Source: Crocinitomicaceae bacterium
GTDB taxonomy: Bacteria; Bacteroidota; Bacteroidia; Flavobacteriales_D; Crocinitomicaceae
Direction: 5' to 3'
Assembly: GCA_044372485.1 (NCBI GenBank)
Contig: JBILRU010000001.1
Coordinates: 9,709-73,708, forward strand
DNA length: 64,000 nt
Shown: positions 3,646 to 57,215 of the stretch, in pieces
How positions within the stretch are numbered: the first letter of the stretch is position 1
Layout of the letters: each line of letters begins with the position of its first letter
The notes under the pieces: model-generated
The model's input: only the letters and a program-made list of their open reading frames with translations
Database searches by the model: none
What the model was told of the DNA's origin: nothing
Translations under genes and position numbers: made by a program

Positions 3646-4575
3646 GTGGGAGTAAAAATATTTGCCGGTAGATCATCAGAAGCCCTTGCTACGAAAGTAG
3701 CGGAAAGTTTTGGCGTTAAACTTGGGGACGTTAAAGTAAGTGTTTTTAGTGATGGAGAATTTCAACCATCATTTGAAGAAACAGTGCGTGGACAGGATGT
3801 TTTTATTATTCAGTCTACGATGCCGCCAACTGAAAATTTATTCGAATTACTGTTATTGGTGGATGCGGCACGACGTGCTTCAGCGCGGAAAATAATTACT
3901 GTAATTCCGTATTTTGGATTTGCGCGCCAAGACAGAAAAGACAAACCGCGTGTAGCAATTGGAGCAAAACTAGTTGCTAATATGTTAATGGCTGCAGGTG
4001 TTGACCGTGTCATGACCATGGACTTACACGCAGATCAAATCCAAGGATTTTTTGAAGTACCTGTTGATCATTTATATGCTTCCACTTTGTTTTTAGCAGA
4101 AATTGAAAAACTTGACACCTCTAATTTAGTGGTTGTTGCTCCAGACGCTGGAGGTGCTAAACGGGCCAATTCGTACGCAAAGAATTTAAATTGTGGTTTG
4201 GCATTGTGTCACAAACACCGTAAAAGACCGAATGAAATTGCTGAAATGACTGTCATCGGAGACGTTGAAGGAAAAGATGTAATTATCATTGATGATATGT
4301 GTGATACAGCTGGTACATTAACAACTGCAGCGGACCTTTTAATTGAAAAAGGAGCAAAAAGTGTTCGTGCTTTCTGTACACACGCTGTTTTAAGTGGTCC
4401 TGCTTACGAACGCATAGAAAAATCTCAATTAACCGAACTAATCGTTACCGACACGATACCAATGTCTAAACACAGCGACAAAATACGCGTAATCACGGTG
4501 TCAGAATTGTTTGGAGACGTCATTAAACGTCTTGTAAACAACGAGTCAATTAGTTCTCATTTTGTAATCTCTTAA
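3646..4575 (+). CDS. prs: Ribose-phosphate pyrophosphokinase
   Basis: 309 aa. Contains the PRPP-synthase motifs YFGFARQDRK and VIIIDDMCDTAGT. GTG start. Confidence 0.95.
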   Translation: MGVKIFAGRSSEALATKVAESFGVKLGDVKVSVFSDGEFQPSFEETVRGQDVFIIQSTMPPTENLFELLLLVDAARRASARKIITVIPYFGFARQDRKDKPRVAIGAKLVANMLMAAGVDRVMTMDLHADQIQGFFEVPVDHLYASTLFLAEIEKLDTSNLVVVAPDAGGAKRANSYAKNLNCGLALCHKHRKRPNEIAEMTVIGDVEGKDVIIIDDMCDTAGTLTTAADLLIEKGAKSVRAFCTHAVLSGPAYERIEKSQLTELIVTDTIPMSKHSDKIRVITVSELFGDVIKRLVNNESISSHFVIS

Positions 4576-50088: not shown

Positions 50089-52734
50089 TTATCCTTCGAT
50101 TTCTTTACGGATTCCTTCGATTTCAACTTCTAATTTGTCCGTGTCGTAGTCTGTTTCCTCATCGTAGATATCGAAGTAAGGTTCTTCAAATGACTTCACA
50201 AATGAATTGCGTTCAAAGGTTAATAAAAGCGAAGGCAGGATAATTAAATTCGTTACCATACCAACTAGAATGGTAATGGAAACCAATAAACCGAGTCCTT
50301 TCGTTCCTCCAAATTGTGAAAAGACAAACATGATAAATCCAAAGAATAAAATGACTGATGTGTAAAAAATACCTAGCCCAGTTTCTTTCAAAGAAAGTAA
50401 AATGGCATGCTTTACGTCCCAGGAATGCGCACGTAATTCTTGACGGTACTTCGCCAAGAATAGGATGGCGTTATCAACGGTGATTCCTAAAGCAATACCA
50501 AAGACCAAAATAGTTGATGGTTTCAATGGAATTTTGAAGTAACCCATAATTCCAGCTGTGAAAAGCAATGGAATGATATTTGGAATCATGGAAACCACAA
50601 TTATTTTGAATGAACGGAATAAGAATGCCATTAGAATTGCGATAGAAATAATGGCAAACACCAAACTTTGAAGTAGGTTTACAAACAAGTATTTTGTTCC
50701 TTCAGAAACAACTACGGCAGTTCCAGTAAAGGTGGACACATAATATTCTTGGTCAATGGCAGTTCGAAGTACTTTTTTAAAGTTAGGTTTACTCAAGTAA
50801 GGACGGAGATTTTCAGGGTCGAGATCGAAGGACATCTGAACGTTGTTGTTTCCTTTCGAAAGCAAGGTTGTTACATTGTTATAGATGCTTGAATAATTGT
50901 ATACCAAGGAATCAGCTGCGCTTTTGTTTCCCTTGATGTATTTGGTGTATAGTCGCTCAAAATCCTTCTTGTCAGGATTTAAGATGCTATCAACTTTCAG
51001 TCTCAACAAATCTACTTTATCTGATACTTTGTACGATCCTAGTTCACGCATCTGCATGCGAATACGCAAGGTAGTTTTGTTGGTGTCGATAAGGTTTTTC
51101 AAGGAAATATTTCCACCATTCAAACTACTCACATCGAATTTATCGAAATAACGTTTCAATCGTAATTTATCTCTGTTGGATATTAATCGGTAAAATTCCG
51201 GATTGTTTCCATGGTAGCTCATGTTGATGGACTTCAAGAAGTCTACATAGGAGAGGCTTTTCGAGAACAAGGTGTCATGAGCGAATGTTTGTTGAATCTC
51301 CTCGACTTTTTCTAATGTTTTTTGAGAAAATAAGCGCGCCTTTTGTTTGTAATCAACGGTAACTTCAAATGGAATGGATCCACCAAAGTTTTTCTCAATG
51401 AATTTCAAATCGATAAGAATTTGATCATCATTAGGAATGTCCCCCGTAATGTTCCCAGTGGCAATGATTTTTGTCATTCCGTAAAGGCCAATCACGACCA
51501 GTCCTACGGAAGCAACATATACCCAAGTACGGTATTTGCTTACAATAATGATTACATATTCTATAAATCCTTTGGAATAAACACGATACAAGTGCTGTAA
51601 ATGCCTTGGCTTAGGTGGCTTGGAGTAAGAAGCGATGATTGGGATAATGCACAAGGATAGAATAAATACTACCATGATGTTGATGCTGGAAATAATCCCG
51701 AATTGTGCTAGTTTCTCTGAACTCGTGAACGTGACGAATCCAACGGCAGTTGTTAAGTTCGTAAGGAACGTAACAGATCCAATGCGGCGAATCATGATGT
51801 ATAACGCTTTGGTCTTCATGTTCGTACGCACATACTCTTGATGGTACCTTGTAATGAGGAATACACAGTTAGGCACACCAATGACAATTAATAATGGCGG
51901 AATTAAGGCCATCATAATCGATAATTTGTATCCAAACAAGGCAATACTTCCAAGGGCCCATATCACGGAAACAAACACCACGATATTACATTGAATAACC
52001 ACCCGAATGGATCGGAAGAATAAGTACAAAAGCAAAGACGATGCGATAACCGATAGTGCAAGGAAAATATACATTTCACTAACGATTCTCTTACCCATTA
52101 CCACCCGAATGTGCGGGAGTCCAGCGAAGTATGTTTTTCCAAAATAGGGCGAATAAGATTCAGCTAACTTTTCAATTTCAAAGACAACTTTAGATTTCTT
52201 TGGATTGGAAAGGCACTTTTCATTCATGCTAATAAGCAGCAAGGAAACGTTCGTCGAATCATTGTAAAGCATTCCCCTGTAAATCGGATTATGTCTGATC
52301 TCTTTTTTCAGAGAGTCGATGCTTTTTTCTTGAAATGCTGTTTTTGGATCTCCGAAAATCTGGTAAGGATCAAACTTTTGTTCCTTTAGGTTGTTTTTTA
52401 GTCCCCAAAGTGTGGCTTCTGAAATGACATTCTCAACACCATCATACTTTAGAATTTTGTAGGACAACTCTCTCCATTTGGTGAAGTTGCGTTTCGTGTA
52501 AAGAGAATCTGTTTGAATCGCAACAACAATCGTTGAACCATCCTCTCCAAATTCGAGTTTGAATTTTTCGAAGTCCTTTTGAACAGGACTATCCTTTGGC
52601 AGCGTGTTTCCCACACGGTTATCAACCTTCAATGAAGTAAAGGCAAAGTAACCAAAGAAAACAGTCAACAAAGCGATTATCGCTAAGATGTACAGTCGGT
52701 TCCTTAATATGATACTTGCAAATTTACCCCACAT
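50089..52734 (-). CDS. MMPL/RND-superfamily transporter (HpnN-like architecture)
   Basis: 881 aa. Two six-helix bundles are each preceded by a large periplasmic loop. Confidence 0.8.
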   Translation of the reverse strand: MWGKFASIILRNRLYILAIIALLTVFFGYFAFTSLKVDNRVGNTLPKDSPVQKDFEKFKLEFGEDGSTIVVAIQTDSLYTKRNFTKWRELSYKILKYDGVENVISEATLWGLKNNLKEQKFDPYQIFGDPKTAFQEKSIDSLKKEIRHNPIYRGMLYNDSTNVSLLLISMNEKCLSNPKKSKVVFEIEKLAESYSPYFGKTYFAGLPHIRVVMGKRIVSEMYIFLALSVIASSLLLYLFFRSIRVVIQCNIVVFVSVIWALGSIALFGYKLSIMMALIPPLLIVIGVPNCVFLITRYHQEYVRTNMKTKALYIMIRRIGSVTFLTNLTTAVGFVTFTSSEKLAQFGIISSINIMVVFILSLCIIPIIASYSKPPKPRHLQHLYRVYSKGFIEYVIIIVSKYRTWVYVASVGLVVIGLYGMTKIIATGNITGDIPNDDQILIDLKFIEKNFGGSIPFEVTVDYKQKARLFSQKTLEKVEEIQQTFAHDTLFSKSLSYVDFLKSINMSYHGNNPEFYRLISNRDKLRLKRYFDKFDVSSLNGGNISLKNLIDTNKTTLRIRMQMRELGSYKVSDKVDLLRLKVDSILNPDKKDFERLYTKYIKGNKSAADSLVYNYSSIYNNVTTLLSKGNNNVQMSFDLDPENLRPYLSKPNFKKVLRTAIDQEYYVSTFTGTAVVVSEGTKYLFVNLLQSLVFAIISIAILMAFLFRSFKIIVVSMIPNIIPLLFTAGIMGYFKIPLKPSTILVFGIALGITVDNAILFLAKYRQELRAHSWDVKHAILLSLKETGLGIFYTSVILFFGFIMFVFSQFGGTKGLGLLVSITILVGMVTNLIILPSLLLTFERNSFVKSFEEPYFDIYDEETDYDTDKLEVEIEGIRKEIEG

Positions 52735-52773
52735 AGATTGTTTCTATAAAAATCAAGGGGTGAAGTTAAGAAA

Positions 52774-52819
52774 TATTTAGGAGAAACCGAGAAAACCATC
52801 CGTTTAGCACTCCTAAATA
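52774..52819. promoter_or_regulatory. Perfect 10-bp inverted repeat TATTTAGGAG-N26-CTCCTAAATA in the MMPL/alkB divergent region
   Basis: Read directly: arms at 52774-52783 and 52810-52819. Confidence 0.4.
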
Positions 52820-52886
52820 ACCCGAAACTATAAACCAAAGCGGAACAAAAGTGTTATTCTTGTAACTTAATTCGAATCATCATCAA

Positions 52887-53522
52887 GTGAACAAAGACCT
52901 ATTTAGCGATTTAATAGACGGACCAAAGTACTTTGAAAAACATATGCTTGAGGATGGTGAATATTGGTTTATGCGAGATTTTTTAAGCGTGGATCAAGCA
53001 ATACAACAGGAGTCATTGTTACTGAACACCATTGAATGGAAACAAGAAGAGGTCTACGTTTTTGGCAAAAAACACAAAGAGCCAAGAAAAACAGCTTGGT
53101 ATGGAGATGAAAACTGTGTGTATTCCTACGCCGGAAAAACGAATCACCCACTACCATGGACAGAGGCATTATACCAATTAAAAACCGACATTGAAGCACT
53201 GATTCCTGGCACCAACTTTAATAGTGTGTTATTAAATCAATACCGAGACGGGAACGAGAAAATGGGCTGGCATTCGGATAACGAAAAAGAACTTGGAAAG
53301 AATCCGATTATCGCTTCATTGAGTCTAGGGGCCATGCGTTTTTTCGACTTAAAACATAAGCGAATAAATTCGCTCAAGAAACGTTTGGAACTGCCTGCTG
53401 GGTCACTTTTAATCATGTGCGGTTCTACGCAAGAAAACTGGCTGCATCAAGTTCCTCAACAAAAAACAGTGAAAGTACCGCGTATTAATTTGACGTTCAG
53501 AAAAATTGTTTCAGAAAACTGA
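52887..53522 (+). CDS. alkB: Fe(II)/2-oxoglutarate-dependent dioxygenase AlkB
   Basis: 211 aa. Contains the NQYRDGNEKMGWHSD (HxD) motif, WLHQVP and INLTFR. GTG start. Confidence 0.85.
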   Translation: MNKDLFSDLIDGPKYFEKHMLEDGEYWFMRDFLSVDQAIQQESLLLNTIEWKQEEVYVFGKKHKEPRKTAWYGDENCVYSYAGKTNHPLPWTEALYQLKTDIEALIPGTNFNSVLLNQYRDGNEKMGWHSDNEKELGKNPIIASLSLGAMRFFDLKHKRINSLKKRLELPAGSLLIMCGSTQENWLHQVPQQKTVKVPRINLTFRKIVSEN

Positions 53523-53645
53523 AAAATCCCAAACAACCGAAGTCGCTTGGGATTTAACTTTCTCGTGAAAGGTGGAAGCCCATTCACAAGGTTTTCAAAA
53601 ACAAAAAACCCTGACGGTAAAGTCAGGGTTTCGTACTCGAGGCGG
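53516..53645. repeat. 130-bp direct repeat, left copy (alkB stop, full spacer, and 12 nt of the tRNA-Leu 3' end)
   Basis: 129/130 identical to 53988-54117. The only difference is G53617 versus A54089. Confidence 0.95.
53595..53631 (-). terminator. Duplicated copy of the tRNA terminator, now downstream of the GIY-YIG ORF
   Basis: On the minus strand, stem AAACCCTGAC/GTCAGGGTTT followed by TTTTTTGTTTTTG. The GIY-YIG stop codon lies inside the stem. Confidence 0.6.
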
Positions 53646-53952
53646 CCCCGAAGCTTCGGAGTTGCACCCTCACGTTTTTATCAATAATTTCATAAAATAA
53701 TTCAGGGTCCTTTATTATTTTTTCAATGAATATTTTTGATTTCATTCGTTTAATAAAACTTTCTGCGAAGTAGGCATGTAAATTATTTTCAAACGAAAAG
53801 GAACCTTTTAATTGCCAAGGAATCCCCTTAGAAGTAAAACTATTTGGATAAAATGCAGAATTATGTTGTTCAATTCGTTTATCTAGATCAACCGTTGTTC
53901 CAGTATAAATACGATTTAATTTTTCTGAGTAAATGACATAAACGTAGTACAT
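53623..53952 (-). CDS. GIY-YIG nuclease family protein (YhbQ/UPF0213-like, 109 aa)
   Basis: MYYVYVIYSEKLNRIYTGTTVDLDKRIEQHN matches the GIY...YTG...R..QH motif set. The start is ATG 53952. The last 7 sense codons and the stop lie inside the repeat. Confidence 0.8.
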   Translation of the reverse strand: MYYVYVIYSEKLNRIYTGTTVDLDKRIEQHNSAFYPNSFTSKGIPWQLKGSFSFENNLHAYFAESFIKRMKSKIFIEKIIKDPELFYEIIDKNVRVQLRSFGAASSTKP

Positions 53953-53987
53953 ATTTAAATAACGGAAGAACAAAAGATTTCGTATTT

Positions 53988-54117
53988 AAACTGAAAAATC
54001 CCAAACAACCGAAGTCGCTTGGGATTTAACTTTCTCGTGAAAGGTGGAAGCCCATTCACAAGGTTTTCAAAAACAAAAAACCCTGACGATAAAGTCAGGG
54101 TTTCGTACTCGAGGCGG
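53988..54117. repeat. 130-bp direct repeat, right copy (abuts and enters the intact tRNA-Leu)
   Basis: See the left copy. Confidence 0.95.
54067..54103 (-). terminator. Rho-independent terminator of the tRNA-Gly/tRNA-Leu operon
   Basis: Same hairpin and T-run as 53595-53631, located 3 nt after the tRNA-Leu 3' end. Confidence 0.75.
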
Positions 54118-54189
54118 GACTTGAACCCGCACGCCCAAAAGAGCACAGGATTTTAAGTCCGGCGTGTCTACCGATTCCACCACTCGAGC
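54106..54189 (-). tRNA. tRNA-Leu(UAA), class II, CCA not encoded
   Basis: Hand-folded. Acceptor GCTCGAG/CTCGAGT (G1-U72), D-arm GTGGAATCGGTAGACAC, anticodon loop CTTAAAA, long variable arm, T-arm GCGGGTTCAAGTCCCGC. It is very similar to E. coli leuZ as I recall it. Confidence 0.93.
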
Positions 54190-54196
54190 ATAGACG

Positions 54197-54269
<73 letters not shown>

Positions 54270-54339
54270 TTATGTATTCCTAGAAAACCGCTGTTTTCTT
54301 CCACCGCTGGAATCATTTCTGATTTCTTGCTTGGGGTGG

Positions 54340-54369
54340 CAAATTTAAAGTTTTTTTTCGTCTTACAAA
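54340..54369 (-). promoter_or_regulatory. Bacteroidota-type promoter of the tRNA operon
   Basis: The minus strand reads TTTG, an 18-nt spacer, then TAAATTTG. It ends 70 nt upstream of the tRNA-Gly 5' end. Confidence 0.45.
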
Positions 54370-54393
54370 ACTCTTAACAAAAAAAAGAGCGGA

Positions 54394-55101
54394 TTACAGC
54401 TCCTTTCCTCGAAAGACATTAAAGAACCAAGCTAATGGCAGTAATAGGTCATAATTATAAAATAAATCTTCAAATGGAATCGTTCCCATTCGCCAACCAA
54501 TGATATGTTGTTCTGAATACCATACGATTGGATCATCGGTAATTGAACCTGTTAGGATGCCATTTACGATAAAAAATGGAATCAAACATACTATATAAGA
54601 AAGGACAAAGTCTCCATACCATGCTTTCTTGTGTGCAAGGAGTGTTAACACTAAGCTGAAAAATGCAGCTGAAATCGTATAGTAATTGTAGGTGTCTAAT
54701 GTGGAAAAAAAGAATTGTCCACCACCGTAAAATAGAACCATCCTTAAAGAACTCAATCCAATCGTCCATTTGAAAAAGTTTCGGATGAGTTTTGTTTTTC
54801 TATCGGGAAAATAGGCCTTAAGAACTAAGTAAATGAAAATGAAATTATAGGGGACAACAAGGAAAAACAACACCTCTTCTATTGGTAGATGGCCTAGGTA
54901 AATTCCAATAAGGTACTTCGGTGTAAATCCCCAAACGCCTATTCGGGTAAAGAATTCATCCCAAATCAAAAACCCAACCCCAACAATGAGTATGCTTGGG
55001 AAAAGATGCTTCCATGAACGGAAAAAGGCTACTTTCTTATCAAAACTGAGAAGAAATGGACCGATAAAAGAACAAAGTATGACCCAGCCGTACGCACTCA
55101 T
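54394..55101 (-). CDS. Lycopene cyclase domain protein (fused CrtYc/CrtYd type)
   Basis: 235 aa, polytopic, with two similar halves carrying PxEE(x)xFF-like motifs (PIEEVLFFLV, PFEDLFY). Confidence 0.75.
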   Translation of the reverse strand: MSAYGWVILCSFIGPFLLSFDKKVAFFRSWKHLFPSILIVGVGFLIWDEFFTRIGVWGFTPKYLIGIYLGHLPIEEVLFFLVVPYNFIFIYLVLKAYFPDRKTKLIRNFFKWTIGLSSLRMVLFYGGGQFFFSTLDTYNYYTISAAFFSLVLTLLAHKKAWYGDFVLSYIVCLIPFFIVNGILTGSITDDPIVWYSEQHIIGWRMGTIPFEDLFYNYDLLLPLAWFFNVFRGKEL

Positions 55102-55577
55102 CAGTTTCTTTTTTTACGGTAAAATGCGGTACGTGCGTCTTGATAGAATTTTGGGGACACAAACAACATTCCAAAACTTTCACTGTGTTCTTTTCCTAAA
55201 TGCTTATGGTGAACTTTATGTGCTTTTCGGATTGCATAAAAGTAAGGATGATCAATGTCTCTCAGCCATTTGAAACGTCGGTGAATGTAAACATCGTGGA
55301 TTAGAAAATAACTCAATCCATAAGCGGCGATTCCGTAACCAATCCAAACGGGAACATAGGCGTCATTCATCATTCCTAACATGATACATAACCACGATGG
55401 AATGGCATAAATCAAAAAGAATACGTCATTTCGCTCGAAAAACCCTGGTTCTTCCTGATGATGATCCTTATGGAAGTACCACATGAATCCATGCATGACA
55501 AACTTGTGCGTTGCCCAAGCCATGAACTCCATGCCCATGAAACTAGCAAATAATACAAACGGTCCCCACCAATACAT
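55101..55577 (-). CDS. crtZ: Beta-carotene 3-hydroxylase
   Basis: 158 aa. Histidine boxes HKFVMH, HKDHH, HDVYIH and HKVHHKH. Confidence 0.85.
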   Translation of the reverse strand: MYWWGPFVLFASFMGMEFMAWATHKFVMHGFMWYFHKDHHQEEPGFFERNDVFFLIYAIPSWLCIMLGMMNDAYVPVWIGYGIAAYGLSYFLIHDVYIHRRFKWLRDIDHPYFYAIRKAHKVHHKHLGKEHSESFGMLFVSPKFYQDARTAFYRKKRN

Positions 55578-55578
55578 G

Positions 55579-56199
55579 TTAAAAGAGTAAAAGAGTAAAA
55601 AATATGAACATCATTAAAAACAAGGATTCAGCTACTTTGTTCACTTCAGCTAACTTCATCCGCTGGTAAATCCATTGAAGTAAATAAGAAACGCCCATCC
55701 AACAAATAAAATTGTAAATAGGAATTTGTCCATTTGTCCATTGCCAATAGTCAAGCTTGATAGCCACAGGCTCCAAGATGTAATCGAATAACACCATCAA
55801 AGTGGCCGCTAAAATAGACTCGATGTGTTTATTAAATTGAAAACGATGGATAATTGCTGAACTTGTAACAGCTAAAATCCCCCAATTCAAACCAATAATA
55901 AGTGGTACACCGTACCACTTCCATCCCAAACTATTTCCGTAATAATATGATCCAAATAAATAAGATGTATGCACGCCAATTAACTCTACGGTAATTCCAA
56001 TGACGAAGGCAATAGATAAAAATAATACGAATGTTAAGGGTTTCGTTTTTCTGCTTAGGATTAAGGCCCCGAAGGAAATGGCTAAGTTTAATGCGGATAG
56101 TTGAACAAACCATGTCCTAGTAGAGGGCATGAGCATTCCAACTGCGCCAACGACGTAGAGTATCAAGAGGACAATTCTAATCCAACGTTCACTTATCAT
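55579..56199 (-). CDS. Carotenoid biosynthesis membrane protein (DUF422/PF04240, CruF-like, by recall)
   Basis: About 206 aa, polytopic, containing ELIGVHT..LFG.Y.Y...LG.K..GVPLIIGLNW. ATG 56199 gives an ATGA overlap with the upstream SDR gene. Confidence 0.6.
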   Translation of the reverse strand: MISERWIRIVLLILYVVGAVGMLMPSTRTWFVQLSALNLAISFGALILSRKTKPLTFVLFLSIAFVIGITVELIGVHTSYLFGSYYYGNSLGWKWYGVPLIIGLNWGILAVTSSAIIHRFQFNKHIESILAATLMVLFDYILEPVAIKLDYWQWTNGQIPIYNFICWMGVSYLLQWIYQRMKLAEVNKVAESLFLMMFIFFTLLLF

Positions 56200-57215
56200 A
56201 ACCAACGTTTTTTGACGAAAGCACTTCCTTTCAGCACATTTTCAATGGTATCATCCAATGTGTGAAAGTGTATAGGAATAGCCTTTTCTATTTTAGAACG
56301 ATCATAGCTAATCGTTTTATATCCCGAATGCACGGATTCAATACTAATCCCGCTGCTTTTCCCAAGGATATGACCTAGCAGCTCATTGATCAATGCATAA
56401 AACAGCGCGATGAATTTTGGCGATGAATAACGCGGGGATTTCTTTCCTAATTTTTCACTCAGTTTGCTAAATAATTCTTTAAAAGTCAAATTCGGACCCA
56501 CACATAAAAAACGCTCTTTTGAAATGTTGGATTTCATGAGCTGAAACATGGCATTTGCCACGTCTCTTGCGTCAACAATGGCATTGGAACCCGGTGGATA
56601 AAATGGCATTCCTTTTTTTGCCGCTTTAAAAATCGCTAAGGAACTACTATTCCAATCTCCTGGACCAAAAATCACACACGGATTAATAATGACCGCATTT
56701 AATCCTTCTTCTATTCCACGCCAAACCTCTTTCTCCGCTAAAAATTTAGAAACGGAGTAACCGCTAACCTCAGATCCTGGCTCCCACTTGTTTGATTCCG
56801 TGCTCGCTCCTTTCGAATTGACTCCTATGGCCGCGGTTGAACTGACATAACAAAGTTTTTCTACCTTATTTCTTAAGGAGAAGTTCACCACATTTGCTGT
56901 AGCTATGCGGTTATGTTGAATACATGCTTCAAAGTCAGCTTTAAAGAATGAAACTAATGCCGCACAATGGTAAACATGGCTTATTTCGGACATGGCCGTT
57001 TCAAACAATGAGATGTCCAATAAATCACAGTAAACCCATTCGATGGCATTCCATTTTTCTTCTGCTCTCTCTTGAAAGTAATAGTCAAAAAGCCCGCGAA
57101 CATCTTCGATTTTAGCCTTGGTTCGGTATAGCGCGCGACAAGATTCGCCTTTTTCTGCCAATTGAATTAACAAGTGGCTTCCCAACAATCCTGTGGCTCC
57201 TGTGACTAAAATCAT
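56196..57215 (-). CDS. NAD(P)-dependent epimerase/dehydratase-family SDR
   Basis: MILVTGATGLLGSHL Rossmann motif and a YSVSK catalytic motif. Confidence 0.8.
   Translation of the reverse strand: MILVTGATGLLGSHLLIQLAEKGESCRALYRTKAKIEDVRGLFDYYFQERAEEKWNAIEWVYCDLLDISLFETAMSEISHVYHCAALVSFFKADFEACIQHNRIATANVVNFSLRNKVEKLCYVSSTAAIGVNSKGASTESNKWEPGSEVSGYSVSKFLAEKEVWRGIEEGLNAVIINPCVIFGPGDWNSSSLAIFKAAKKGMPFYPPGSNAIVDARDVANAMFQLMKSNISKERFLCVGPNLTFKELFSKLSEKLGKKSPRYSSPKFIALFYALINELLGHILGKSSGISIESVHSGYKTISYDRSKIEKAIPIHFHTLDDTIENVLKGSAFVKKRWL

Follow-up and report, generated by a model that had tools for sequence, protein, structure and literature searches.

A one-gene GIY-YIG nuclease cassette with a precise empty site behind tRNA-Leu in Crocinitomicaceae, and its relatives at tRNA genes in Bacteroidota

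Introduction

Why should a gene for a small nuclease-like protein stand alone between two nearly identical copies of the spacer that follows a tRNA gene? This arrangement is found in a stretch of 64,000 nucleotides (nt) from a Crocinitomicaceae bacterium (GenBank assembly GCA_044372485.1, contig JBILRU010000001.1, positions 9,709 to 73,708), which in its full length is called the window here. The gene encodes a predicted GIY-YIG protein of 109 amino acids (aa) and lies between tRNA-Leu(UAA) and a convergent alkB-like gene. The repeat is called A, the intervening DNA X, and the one-gene unit the cassette; related loci or contigs have L numbers and homologous proteins have P numbers. UPF0213/YhbQ-type GIY-YIG proteins are among the commonest small bacterial proteins of unknown function. 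In Bacteroidota their genes form stereotyped cassettes bound to tRNA genes that vary between near-identical strains, which leads to a testable hypothesis about their function.

Results

The repeated spacer and the gene between its copies

Between 52.5 and 55.2 kb of the window, the repeat finder returned a single strong repeat family: two direct copies of 130 nt, 99% identical (129/130), with a spacing of 472 nt (coordinates are in Table 1). Reading of the sequence put the sole mismatch, G53617 versus A54089, in the hairpin loop of the tRNA terminator. The left edge of the repeat is AAAC, 4 nt ahead of the alkB-like stop codon (TGA, 53520 to 53522), and the final 4 nt of that gene plus its stop codon fall within copy A2. 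The right edge is 12 to 13 nt within tRNA-Leu(UAA), which begins at 54105 according to ARAGORN and at 54106 according to Rfam. Of the three hairpins in each copy, two are scored as intrinsic terminators in the direction of the tRNA, which is the minus strand. The 13-mer at the tRNA end, GTACTCGAGGCGG, occurs twice in the window, both times at the repeats, against 0.02 occurrences expected. A search of the window found no second copy of the GIY-YIG gene and no further copy of the repeat.

Most of this had been read from the letters in the original prediction. The 130-nt direct repeats, their one mismatch, their edges, and their three hairpins were each confirmed (by the repeat finder, reading, ARAGORN, and Rfam), and the 342 bp between the copies, said to be richer in AT than the flanks, have a GC content of 28 to 31% versus about 38 to 43% in the coding flanks. 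The statement that these 342 bp encode only a 109-aa GIY-YIG gene holds as to gene number, this being the sole real open reading frame (ORF) of the interval in the ORF list, but not as to extent: the final 7 codons and the stop codon lie beyond the interval, within A2. The predicted lack of an integrase or transposase in the cassette agrees with the ORF list; the integrases of two islands at related loci had no match in the window, and this comparison was the only integrase scan made.

A protein 99% identical to that of the window is encoded in contigs of several independent metagenomes, with the same 472-nt spacing. The gene order shared by these contigs is carotenoid genes, tRNA-Gly, tRNA-Leu, cassette, alkB-like gene, and MMPL transporter gene. 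Two of them, L001 and L005, cover the stretch from the carotenoid genes to within the cassette, and L001 extends through the alkB-like gene. As expected, the repeat is a frequent break point of short-read contigs.

Presence and absence in close relatives

Five contigs obtained by scanning metagenomes with the alkB-like protein have no GIY-YIG gene; their alkB genes are 82 to 89% identical. The order in these contigs is alkB, one 130-nt spacer (93 to 94% identical to that of the window), tRNA-Leu, tRNA-Gly, and lycopene cyclase, which is the single-spacer empty site that had been foreseen. One empty locus, L048, is 99.45% identical over 911 nt to an occupied strain, L049, and the two diverge exactly at the end of the 13-nt tRNA fragment. 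The five mismatches between them are scattered, with no gradient of co-conversion. The cassette is thus polymorphic for presence and absence in close relatives, and its empty site is precise. Occupied loci are intermixed with empty ones at three places of the alkB tree, and its outgroups are occupied or decayed.

One architecture at four tRNA types

A single scan of species-representative genomes yielded 36 loci, from Crocinitomicaceae, Flavobacterium, Sediminicola, Cyclobacteriaceae, and unclassified Bacteroidota. A tRNA gene on the same strand ends 37 to 425 nt upstream of the GIY-YIG gene in 31 of the 36, which bears out the statement in the original prediction that such genes often sit next to tRNA genes. 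The closest named genomes are metagenome-assembled genomes of Crocinitomicaceae (Flavobacteriales), and the source of the window is probably a freshwater member of that family. The upstream tRNA types are Leu(UAA), Phe(GAA), Asn(GUU), and Thr(UGU). Four of the remaining five loci are at contig ends or behind an inserted island, and the fifth, L038, is a mirror form with the tRNA downstream. In 28 of 29 loci with an upstream tRNA, covering all four types, a direct repeat 3' of the gene begins 13 to 15 nt from the tRNA 3' end, and this downstream repeat generally passes through the terminator. Its length is about 130 nt in the Crocinitomicaceae group and 50 to 60 nt in Flavobacterium; in L026, L036, and L059 only the tRNA fragment is repeated. 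The order of a cassette is tRNA and terminator, gene, decayed copy of the tRNA 3' half, a GC-rich hairpin in the T-loop of that copy, and then the exact last 13 nt of the tRNA with the terminator and spacer.

The mirror form occurs at tRNA-Leu(CAA) in L038 (3860 to 4470). Here the upstream region of the tRNA and its bases 1 to 13 are duplicated, the hairpin replaces bases of the D-loop, the copy reaches the anticodon loop with the ATG of the ORF immediately after it, and the intact tRNA is downstream. In L060 (2860 to 3140), hairpin-bearing relics flank the real tRNA-Leu on both sides. The GIY-YIG tree groups the genes by tRNA type across genera, and Flavobacterium palustre carries two cassettes, one of the Phe type and one of the Asn type. 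At three loci, islands with tyrosine integrases lie between tRNA-Phe and the GIY-YIG cassette (L023, 2460 to 3940; L061, 754 to 2260; L065, 549 to 2260), and their distal junction is exactly the same 13-nt tRNA end, CTGGAGGTACCAC. From these sequence comparisons, the cassettes appear to be a large family in Bacteroidota of one-gene units behind tRNA genes.

The split tRNA half and its hairpin

The relic in the window reads CGTGAGGGTGCAA, inside the ORF, versus CGTGCGGGTTCAA in the tRNA, and the hairpin takes the place of the last T-loop bases (GTC) of the relic. Across loci the hairpin has the consensus YCCCGA-N4(6)-TCGGGR, stands in place of the last 3 to 5 bases of the copied T-loop, and is always left of the repeat. 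In a comparison of 41 hairpins, stem pairs 3 to 6 (CCGA/TCGG) were invariant, pairs 1 and 2 switched together between C-G and T-A (that is, they covary), and the stems were nearly free of G-U pairs. To the left of the hairpin the tRNA copy extends back to the anticodon loop, where the stop codon of the ORF abuts or overlaps it. The Phe cassettes give an example: the tRNA has gtCCCTGGTTC-GATCC-CTGGAGGTACCAC and the cassette has gtCCCTGGTTC-TCCCGAAGCCTCGGGA-CTGGAGGTACCAC. In the Asn example the cassette has TAAtcagagagtccttg and the tRNA has TTAAtcagagggtccttg.

On its right the hairpin borders a segment that is kept identical to the local tRNA; on its left the relic decays, and pairing in the T-stem of the relic is not maintained in this lineage. 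The predicted fold of the region is strong (z = -5.7). Because of this architecture of relic, hairpin, and repeat, A is better described as the right-hand, well-preserved portion of a tRNA 3' half that was duplicated together with the spacer, and not, as was originally proposed, as a plain copy of the spacer. X consists of the ORF, the decayed left-hand tRNA copy, and the hairpin.

The window contains one such hairpin, and related loci contain one per cassette. A dispersed, REP-like hairpin was considered and rejected for this genome because of the single copy in 64 kb and the few stray copies in other loci. These stray hairpins, outside cassettes, are at L032 4431, L060 5985, and L054 655 and 694. 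A second hairpin of the same consensus occurs in the loop of the downstream terminator copy in L019 (4344), L032 (about 4345), L033 (4355), and L040 (287); the hairpin seems able to land in the loops of other stem-loops. At tRNA-Asn of Flavobacterium, L042 and L043 (about 4286 to 4330) have the hairpin TCCGATAGCTATCGGA at another T-loop position, after G53-T54. The proteins of these two loci are a clade apart from those of other Asn cassettes, and L043 has a second complete tRNA-Asn about 330 nt downstream.

The spacer itself is 91 to 97% conserved across lineages with near-saturated synonymous sites, and its changes are almost solely in hairpin loops. Flanking genes are 66 to 96% identical across the same loci, and the spacer is equally conserved in empty sites (the single copies in L044 to L048). 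This 117-nt spacer (53516 to 53632 and 53988 to 54104) may be a functional noncoding element beyond its two terminators, for example, a tRNA 3'-trailer RNA. Such an RNA is 3'ETS-leuZ of Escherichia coli.

Arrays and remnants

The window has one unit only. Three head-to-tail units of 368 bp, 100% identical, stand behind tRNA-Phe in a Flavobacterium (L018, 3947 to 5099), in a 2.9-Mb contig that, by its record name, would be a nanopore assembly. Two units, 97 to 99% identical, stand in each of L023, L024, and L025, and L038 is also an array; besides L018, there are four cases with two copies. A remnant accompanies a full unit in L015, L022, and L001. In L001, L002, L004, and L006 there is a third copy of the spacer, and the tRNA is separated from the intact cassette by a 64-nt remnant. 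Translation of this remnant gives ...FLNSIENSVRVQLRGFGAASSTKP, which is the 3' end of another allele, with P0006 as the closest match. In L012 the ORF is cut at residue 72 and fused to alkB. These arrays and remnants match the expectation that the ORF family varies in position and copy number.

Incongruent genealogies and the age of the cassette

The genealogy of the cassette is incongruent with that of the adjacent alkB gene. Between L007 and L049, the GIY-YIG genes are 91.7% identical in nucleotide sequence and the alkB genes, 100 nt away, are 77.3% identical; for L008 versus L009, the same two comparisons give 83.5% and 64.4%. Identity of the window and L001 is 99 to 100% in the backbone (57.45 to 55.85 kb and 51.55 to 50.55 kb) and again across the tRNAs and A-X-A, whereas in the approximately 4 kb around this stretch (51650 to 55800) identity is 75 to 93% on the carotenoid side and 89 to 97% on the alkB/MMPL side. 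This pattern puts the cassette, with a history of its own, at the center of a recombination patch, and the patch around the tRNAs and cassette looks like a local recombination hot spot. The 165-nt tRNA-Gly/tRNA-Leu segment shows 100% identity at every related locus, occupied or empty, except L011 (98%). Judged by this identity, the tRNA pair and the spacer are the obvious candidates for crossover arms, with the tRNA pair as the candidate left-hand arm.

The original prediction took the 129/130 identity of the repeats as a sign of a recent event. Within genomes the copies differ at no site in L003, at 1 to 3 sites in the window, L009, and L010, at about 7 in L008, and at about 12 in L011. Given that the conservation of the spacer is largely its own, the identity is weak evidence for recent insertion. 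The suggestion that the locus had caught a mobile gene in the act fares half well: turnover is found, and recent arrival is not, the cassette being old at this tRNA. It occurs at tRNA-Gly/tRNA-Leu(UAA) in Crocinitomicaceae and in Flavobacterium. The picture is of an old association with each tRNA together with fast turnover, in which the cassette is lost, amplified, converted, and regained. The cassette may have come by a circle of about 472 bp or by a long target duplication, the two origins first put forward; the data call for neither, as they are equally explained by unequal crossing-over and by double crossovers in the conserved arms.

The GIY-YIG protein

The ORF matches Pfam PF01541 (E = 2.5e-9). 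Its C-terminal tail, GAASSTKP, is translated from three pieces: the last part of the GC hairpin, the 3' fragment of the tRNA, and the bases with which the terminator begins. A protein search gave 32 homologues, and those that are 73 to 99% identical and complete at the C terminus all keep ...FGAASSTKP, so the junction of gene and tRNA fragment is conserved. Homologues in this range are mostly 109 aa long; three are 131-aa ORF calls with an N-terminal extension. Across 33 homologues, Y5, Y16, G18, R26, H30, N31, and E64 are nearly invariant; the GIY and YIG motifs are kept, and so are Arg, His/Asn, and Glu among the catalytic residues. In a profile search of solved structures the hits were the UPF0213 proteins BH0048 (1zg2, 4e-8) and EF2693 (1ywl), and Slx1 (7wme), and the best sequence and fold matches were 1zg2, 1ywl, 7wme, 6seh, and 4xlg, with identity of only about 25%. 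Foldseek ranked 1zg2 ahead of Slx1, and Slx1 ahead of the I-TevI catalytic domain, for the AlphaFold model (pLDDT, 86.6). The protein is thus predicted to be a member of the GIY-YIG superfamily in the UPF0213/YhbQ/Slx1-like clade, closer to it than to UvrC or I-TevI, and Pfam, the profile search, and Foldseek agree with the UPF0213/YhbQ-type identity first proposed for it. Pfam and the structure model give a catalytic domain plus C-terminal helices, with no other Pfam domain and no DNA-binding domain.

The ORF evolves under purifying selection: the ratio of nonsynonymous to synonymous substitutions (dN/dS) is 0.07 to 0.26, with a synonymous divergence of 0.2 to 2.5 between lineages. At E of ≤1e-10, the family comprises 1,393 clusters (50% identity). 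Its ORF calls often run into translated tRNA or hairpin sequence, and one database ORF (P0033) is two units fused in frame. Membership in a family of defense-system or phage proteins was rejected on a partial match of only 15 bits in PADLOC and no match in PHROGs. Viral contigs and phage collections held only relatives of 31 to 32% identity, without an adjacent tRNA.

In the Crocinitomicaceae lineage (window 53623 to 53675) the ORF has lost the usual stop codon at the anticodon-loop junction and continues across relic, hairpin, and tRNA fragment. This adds about 15 residues, which are predicted to form a helix. Changes in the hairpin loop appear as S/G/D/K/A variation in ...QLRxFGAASSTKP.

Features of the locus and its neighbors

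The features of the locus are collected in Table 1. In the leader region, a scan for sigma-70 promoters gave no convincing match, the sigma-70 model being uninformative for Bacteroidota. An E-value search of Rfam with 53300 to 54500 found the two tRNAs only, without a ribozyme or another RNA family. An exact-sequence look-up of the alkB-like protein returned no record. Directly upstream of the tRNA pair is a carotenoid gene set (54394 to 57215), syntenic in related contigs, that includes genes for a lycopene cyclase domain protein, a Caroten_synth family protein, an NAD-dependent epimerase-like protein, and a 158-aa histidine-rich membrane protein resembling carotene hydroxylase.

TABLE 1 Features of the cassette locus, in window positions. 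A1 and A2 are the two copies of the repeat; the parts of A2 are given in minus-strand order.
Feature	Position	Strand	Basis
alkB-like 2OG-Fe(II) oxygenase gene	52887-53522	+	ORF list; Pfam PF13532, E = 9e-35
Repeat copy A2, alkB side	53516-53645	-	Repeat finder, 13-mer count, terminator and fold scans
A2, tRNA-Leu 3' fragment, 13 nt	53633-53645	-	
A2, tRNA-type terminator	53605-53632	-	
A2, middle hairpin	53562-53590	-	
A2, second terminator hairpin	53524-53555	-	
Conserved GC hairpin, 16 nt, CTCCGAAGCTTCGGGG on the minus strand	53646-53661	-	Sequence comparison
tRNA-Leu relic (variable-arm end, T-stem 5' strand, T-loop start)	53662-53674	-	Sequence comparison
Predicted GIY-YIG nuclease ORF, UPF0213/Slx1 type, 109 aa plus stop codon	53623-53952	-	ORF list, Pfam PF01541
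Leader/promoter region, 35 nt, from repeat copy A1 to ATG	53953-53987	-	Conserved in L049
Repeat copy A1, tRNA side: true last 13 nt of tRNA-Leu (54105-54117) plus 117-nt spacer with the same three hairpins	53988-54117	-	
Intact tRNA-Leu(UAA), anchor of the cassette	54105-54189	-	ARAGORN, Rfam
tRNA-Gly(GCC), 6 nt upstream of tRNA-Leu	54196-54269	-	ARAGORN, Rfam

Discussion

How the cassette might be lost, amplified, and regained

On balance, we favor a cassette that resembles a homing endonuclease gene, in which the repeats would be the recombination arms for loss, amplification, and re-acquisition, and in which the nuclease would act by analogy with phage SegB. The duplication leaves both the tRNA 3' end with its terminator and the alkB stop codon with its terminator intact, so that insertion costs nothing, and the downstream copy of the spacer would supply a terminator for the nuclease gene. 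Homologous recombination from repeat to repeat would delete the cassette and leave one spacer, would amplify it into tandem arrays, and would homogenize the two copies; recombination between repeats accounts for the empty sites, the arrays, the remnants, and the homogenized copies. The near-invariant tRNA-Gly/tRNA-Leu pair and the strongly conserved spacer could be portable arms, by which the cassette would be re-acquired from diverged relatives in a double crossover.

The nuclease may stimulate these events by cutting at or near the hairpin or the tRNA DNA, as SegB cuts at T-loops. The hairpin could be the structure that the nuclease recognizes, a barrier that keeps the relic from recombining lethally with the real tRNA, or both. 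Slx1 cuts branched and stem-loop DNA, which makes the hairpin a plausible substrate, and a cruciform or stem-loop substrate for an Slx1-like enzyme is attractive because the hairpin is the sole conserved sequence unique to the cassette. Exchange that crosses the hairpin would destroy the real tRNA, which would explain why identity is perfect to the right of the hairpin and decays to the left.

A more specific and bolder version is that this is a new kind of integrase-free mobile cassette. The minimal, Slx1-like nuclease would be structure-specific and act on its own hairpin in the T- or D-loop of the copied tRNA half, the breaks would be repaired from the neighboring or an incoming tRNA locus, and the cassette would thereby duplicate, spread to cassette-free alleles, and occasionally capture a new tRNA gene. 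We advance this version tentatively and think it rather doubtful.

Several points weigh against a homing-like cassette. The 109-aa protein, a nuclease by prediction, is a catalytic domain without a DNA-binding domain. No sequence of the empty allele is missing from the occupied allele, so classical homing, which destroys its target, cannot apply; homing immunity of the classical kind was rejected because the intact tRNA-A junction and the A-alkB junction are both kept in the occupied allele. Four losses account for the pattern in the alkB tree as well as gains do. The alkB gene evolves fast, and its own recombination could explain part of the incongruence. Lastly, cassette lineages track tRNA type across genera, which fits long vertical inheritance with losses only.

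Alternatives to a mobile cassette

The last of these points leads to a different reading: a domesticated host gene, for example, in DNA repair or in the maintenance of tRNA loci, that was fixed long ago, with the repeats a by-product of partial tRNA duplication and with only loss and ordinary exchange, without selfish drive. The clades that follow tRNA type across genera, the purifying selection on the ORF, the strong conservation of the spacer in its own right, and an alkB tree that losses alone can explain all suit a host gene, as does an occupied allele that appears to lack no unique target. We nevertheless consider it unlikely. Decayed or truncated copies are frequent (L012, the remnant in L001, L015, L022, and L028), which is unusual for a useful gene; occupancy differs between near-clonal strains; a remnant of a different allele stands in tandem with an intact unit; an island of identity is centered on the cassette; and a conserved hairpin together with a mirror 5' form speaks for dedicated machinery in cis. 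Machinery in trans, with the cassette nonautonomous (CIME- or integron-like), is to us a still more remote prospect. In that case the 13-nt tRNA end would be an att core and the hairpin a recombinase site, and the cassette would leave as a circle of about 472 bp and be reinserted, with tandem accretion, through the action of an integrase from a tRNA-targeting island or of a Xer-type enzyme of the host. Tyrosine-integrase islands do abut the same 13-nt tRNA-Phe boundary beside the cassettes of L023, L061, and L065, the units with their single ORF and 3' hairpin are found in arrays, and the repeat is the tRNA fragment alone in L026 and L036. However, there is no integrase in or near the window cassette and most loci have none nearby; the repeats (50 to 130 nt) usually exceed a plausible core and run through species-specific terminators; the nuclease ORF is conserved though the recombinase would not need it; and the hairpin arms, at 6 nt, are shorter than known tyrosine-recombinase core sites.

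The conserved sequences might instead work as RNA. The copy of the tRNA half and the hairpin would be a guide, a decoy, or a regulator of the nuclease mRNA, with the hairpin as a handle for the protein and the tRNA-identical flanks as its specificity, and selection on the RNA would keep the DNA repeats. This would suit a conserved scaffold with flanks specific to the tRNA type, in both 3' and 5' forms, a segment right of the hairpin that stays identical to the local tRNA, and the strong predicted fold. We hold it to be very improbable, in that the protein has only about 95 residues, the left-side relic decays with T-stem pairing lost in this lineage, and the hairpin stems have almost no G-U pairs; we also know of no RNA-guided GIY-YIG enzymes. 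An artifact of assembly, by which reads were misjoined around the tRNA, would agree with the many short-read contigs that break at the repeat. It was rejected: a check for such an error, with which the original prediction had been hedged, found the same A-X-A layout and 472-nt spacing in independent assemblies from several samples, some of whose contigs cross most or all of the locus. In addition, a related array lies within the 2.9-Mb nanopore-named contig, and the architecture recurs in 28 loci.

Significance

If a nuclease-driven cassette is what these loci hold, the long-orphan UPF0213 family of bacteria would gain a function. The cassettes also point to a remodeling of tRNA loci without an integrase, parallel to the mechanism recently shown for phage SegB. 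There are practical consequences as well, as repeats of 50 to 130 nt break short-read assemblies at tRNA loci, and the relics can be miscalled as tRNA fragments or fused into ORF calls.

Comparison with known systems

The closest parallel is SegB, a phage GIY-YIG enzyme encoded beside tRNA genes that cuts a tRNA T-loop motif, drives recombination-dependent tandem amplification of tRNA and segB, and is statistically linked to tRNAs across phages (PMC13096335). Truncated at its C terminus, SegB loses its toxicity (PMC13096335). The cassettes share with segB and the seg genes of T-even phages a GIY-YIG gene beside a tRNA and, here too, arrays, presence/absence variation, and a recombination patch. 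The head-to-tail arrays of nuclease and tRNA sequence (L018, L023, L024, L025, and L038) are a further likeness to amplification of the SegB kind. The enzymes differ: SegB is larger than 109 aa and carries a separate DNA-binding region, whereas the cassette protein is a catalytic domain only, predicted to be of the Slx1/UPF0213 and not the I-TevI clade. The setting here is a bacterial chromosome, and seg genes do not show the defined relic of half a tRNA, the conserved hairpin, or the exact terminal repeats of the cassette. Free-standing homing genes, more generally, have in common with the cassette a precise empty site and discordance of gene and flanks or an island of identity. They differ from it in having a DNA-binding domain for a long target and a target unique to the empty allele.

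UPF0213/YhbQ proteins (BH0048 and EF2693) and Slx1 are the best matches in sequence and fold, with the catalytic residues conserved. A linkage to tRNAs, repeats, or mobility was not found described for YhbQ or Slx1 in the 2006 survey that covers the GIY-YIG superfamily or in the searchable literature. Nor were tRNA-linked UPF0213 cassettes, the relic, or the hairpin found in that literature, which leaves out most subscription journals, so this is not proof of novelty.

Among insertions at tRNA genes, islands with tyrosine integrases likewise insert at the tRNA 3' end, give a direct repeat of it, and restore the tRNA with the incoming copy, and at three loci such islands stand at the very same 13-nt boundary. 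Unlike them, the cassette lacks an integrase and measures only 342 bp; its repeats run through terminator and spacer, and its relic, split by a hairpin, goes back to the anticodon loop. Integron cassettes and CIMEs are also single-ORF units with a 3' hairpin site, tandem arrays at one anchor, and possibly small circles. Here, however, there is no IntI or attI, every unit has the same nuclease gene and not varied cargo, most loci have no recombinase beside the arrays, and the hairpin has 16 to 18 nt versus 57 to 141 nt for attC sites. As with the homing genes of group I introns in tRNA anticodon loops, for which tRNA-Leu(UAA) is among the hosts, the ORF meets the tRNA at the anticodon loop. Unlike those introns, the cassette has no ribozyme (Rfam), the interrupted copy is half a tRNA, and the functional tRNA is separate and intact. 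The cassette is best placed with two known kinds of element, namely, nuclease genes that stand free beside tRNA genes and insertions that are anchored to a tRNA.

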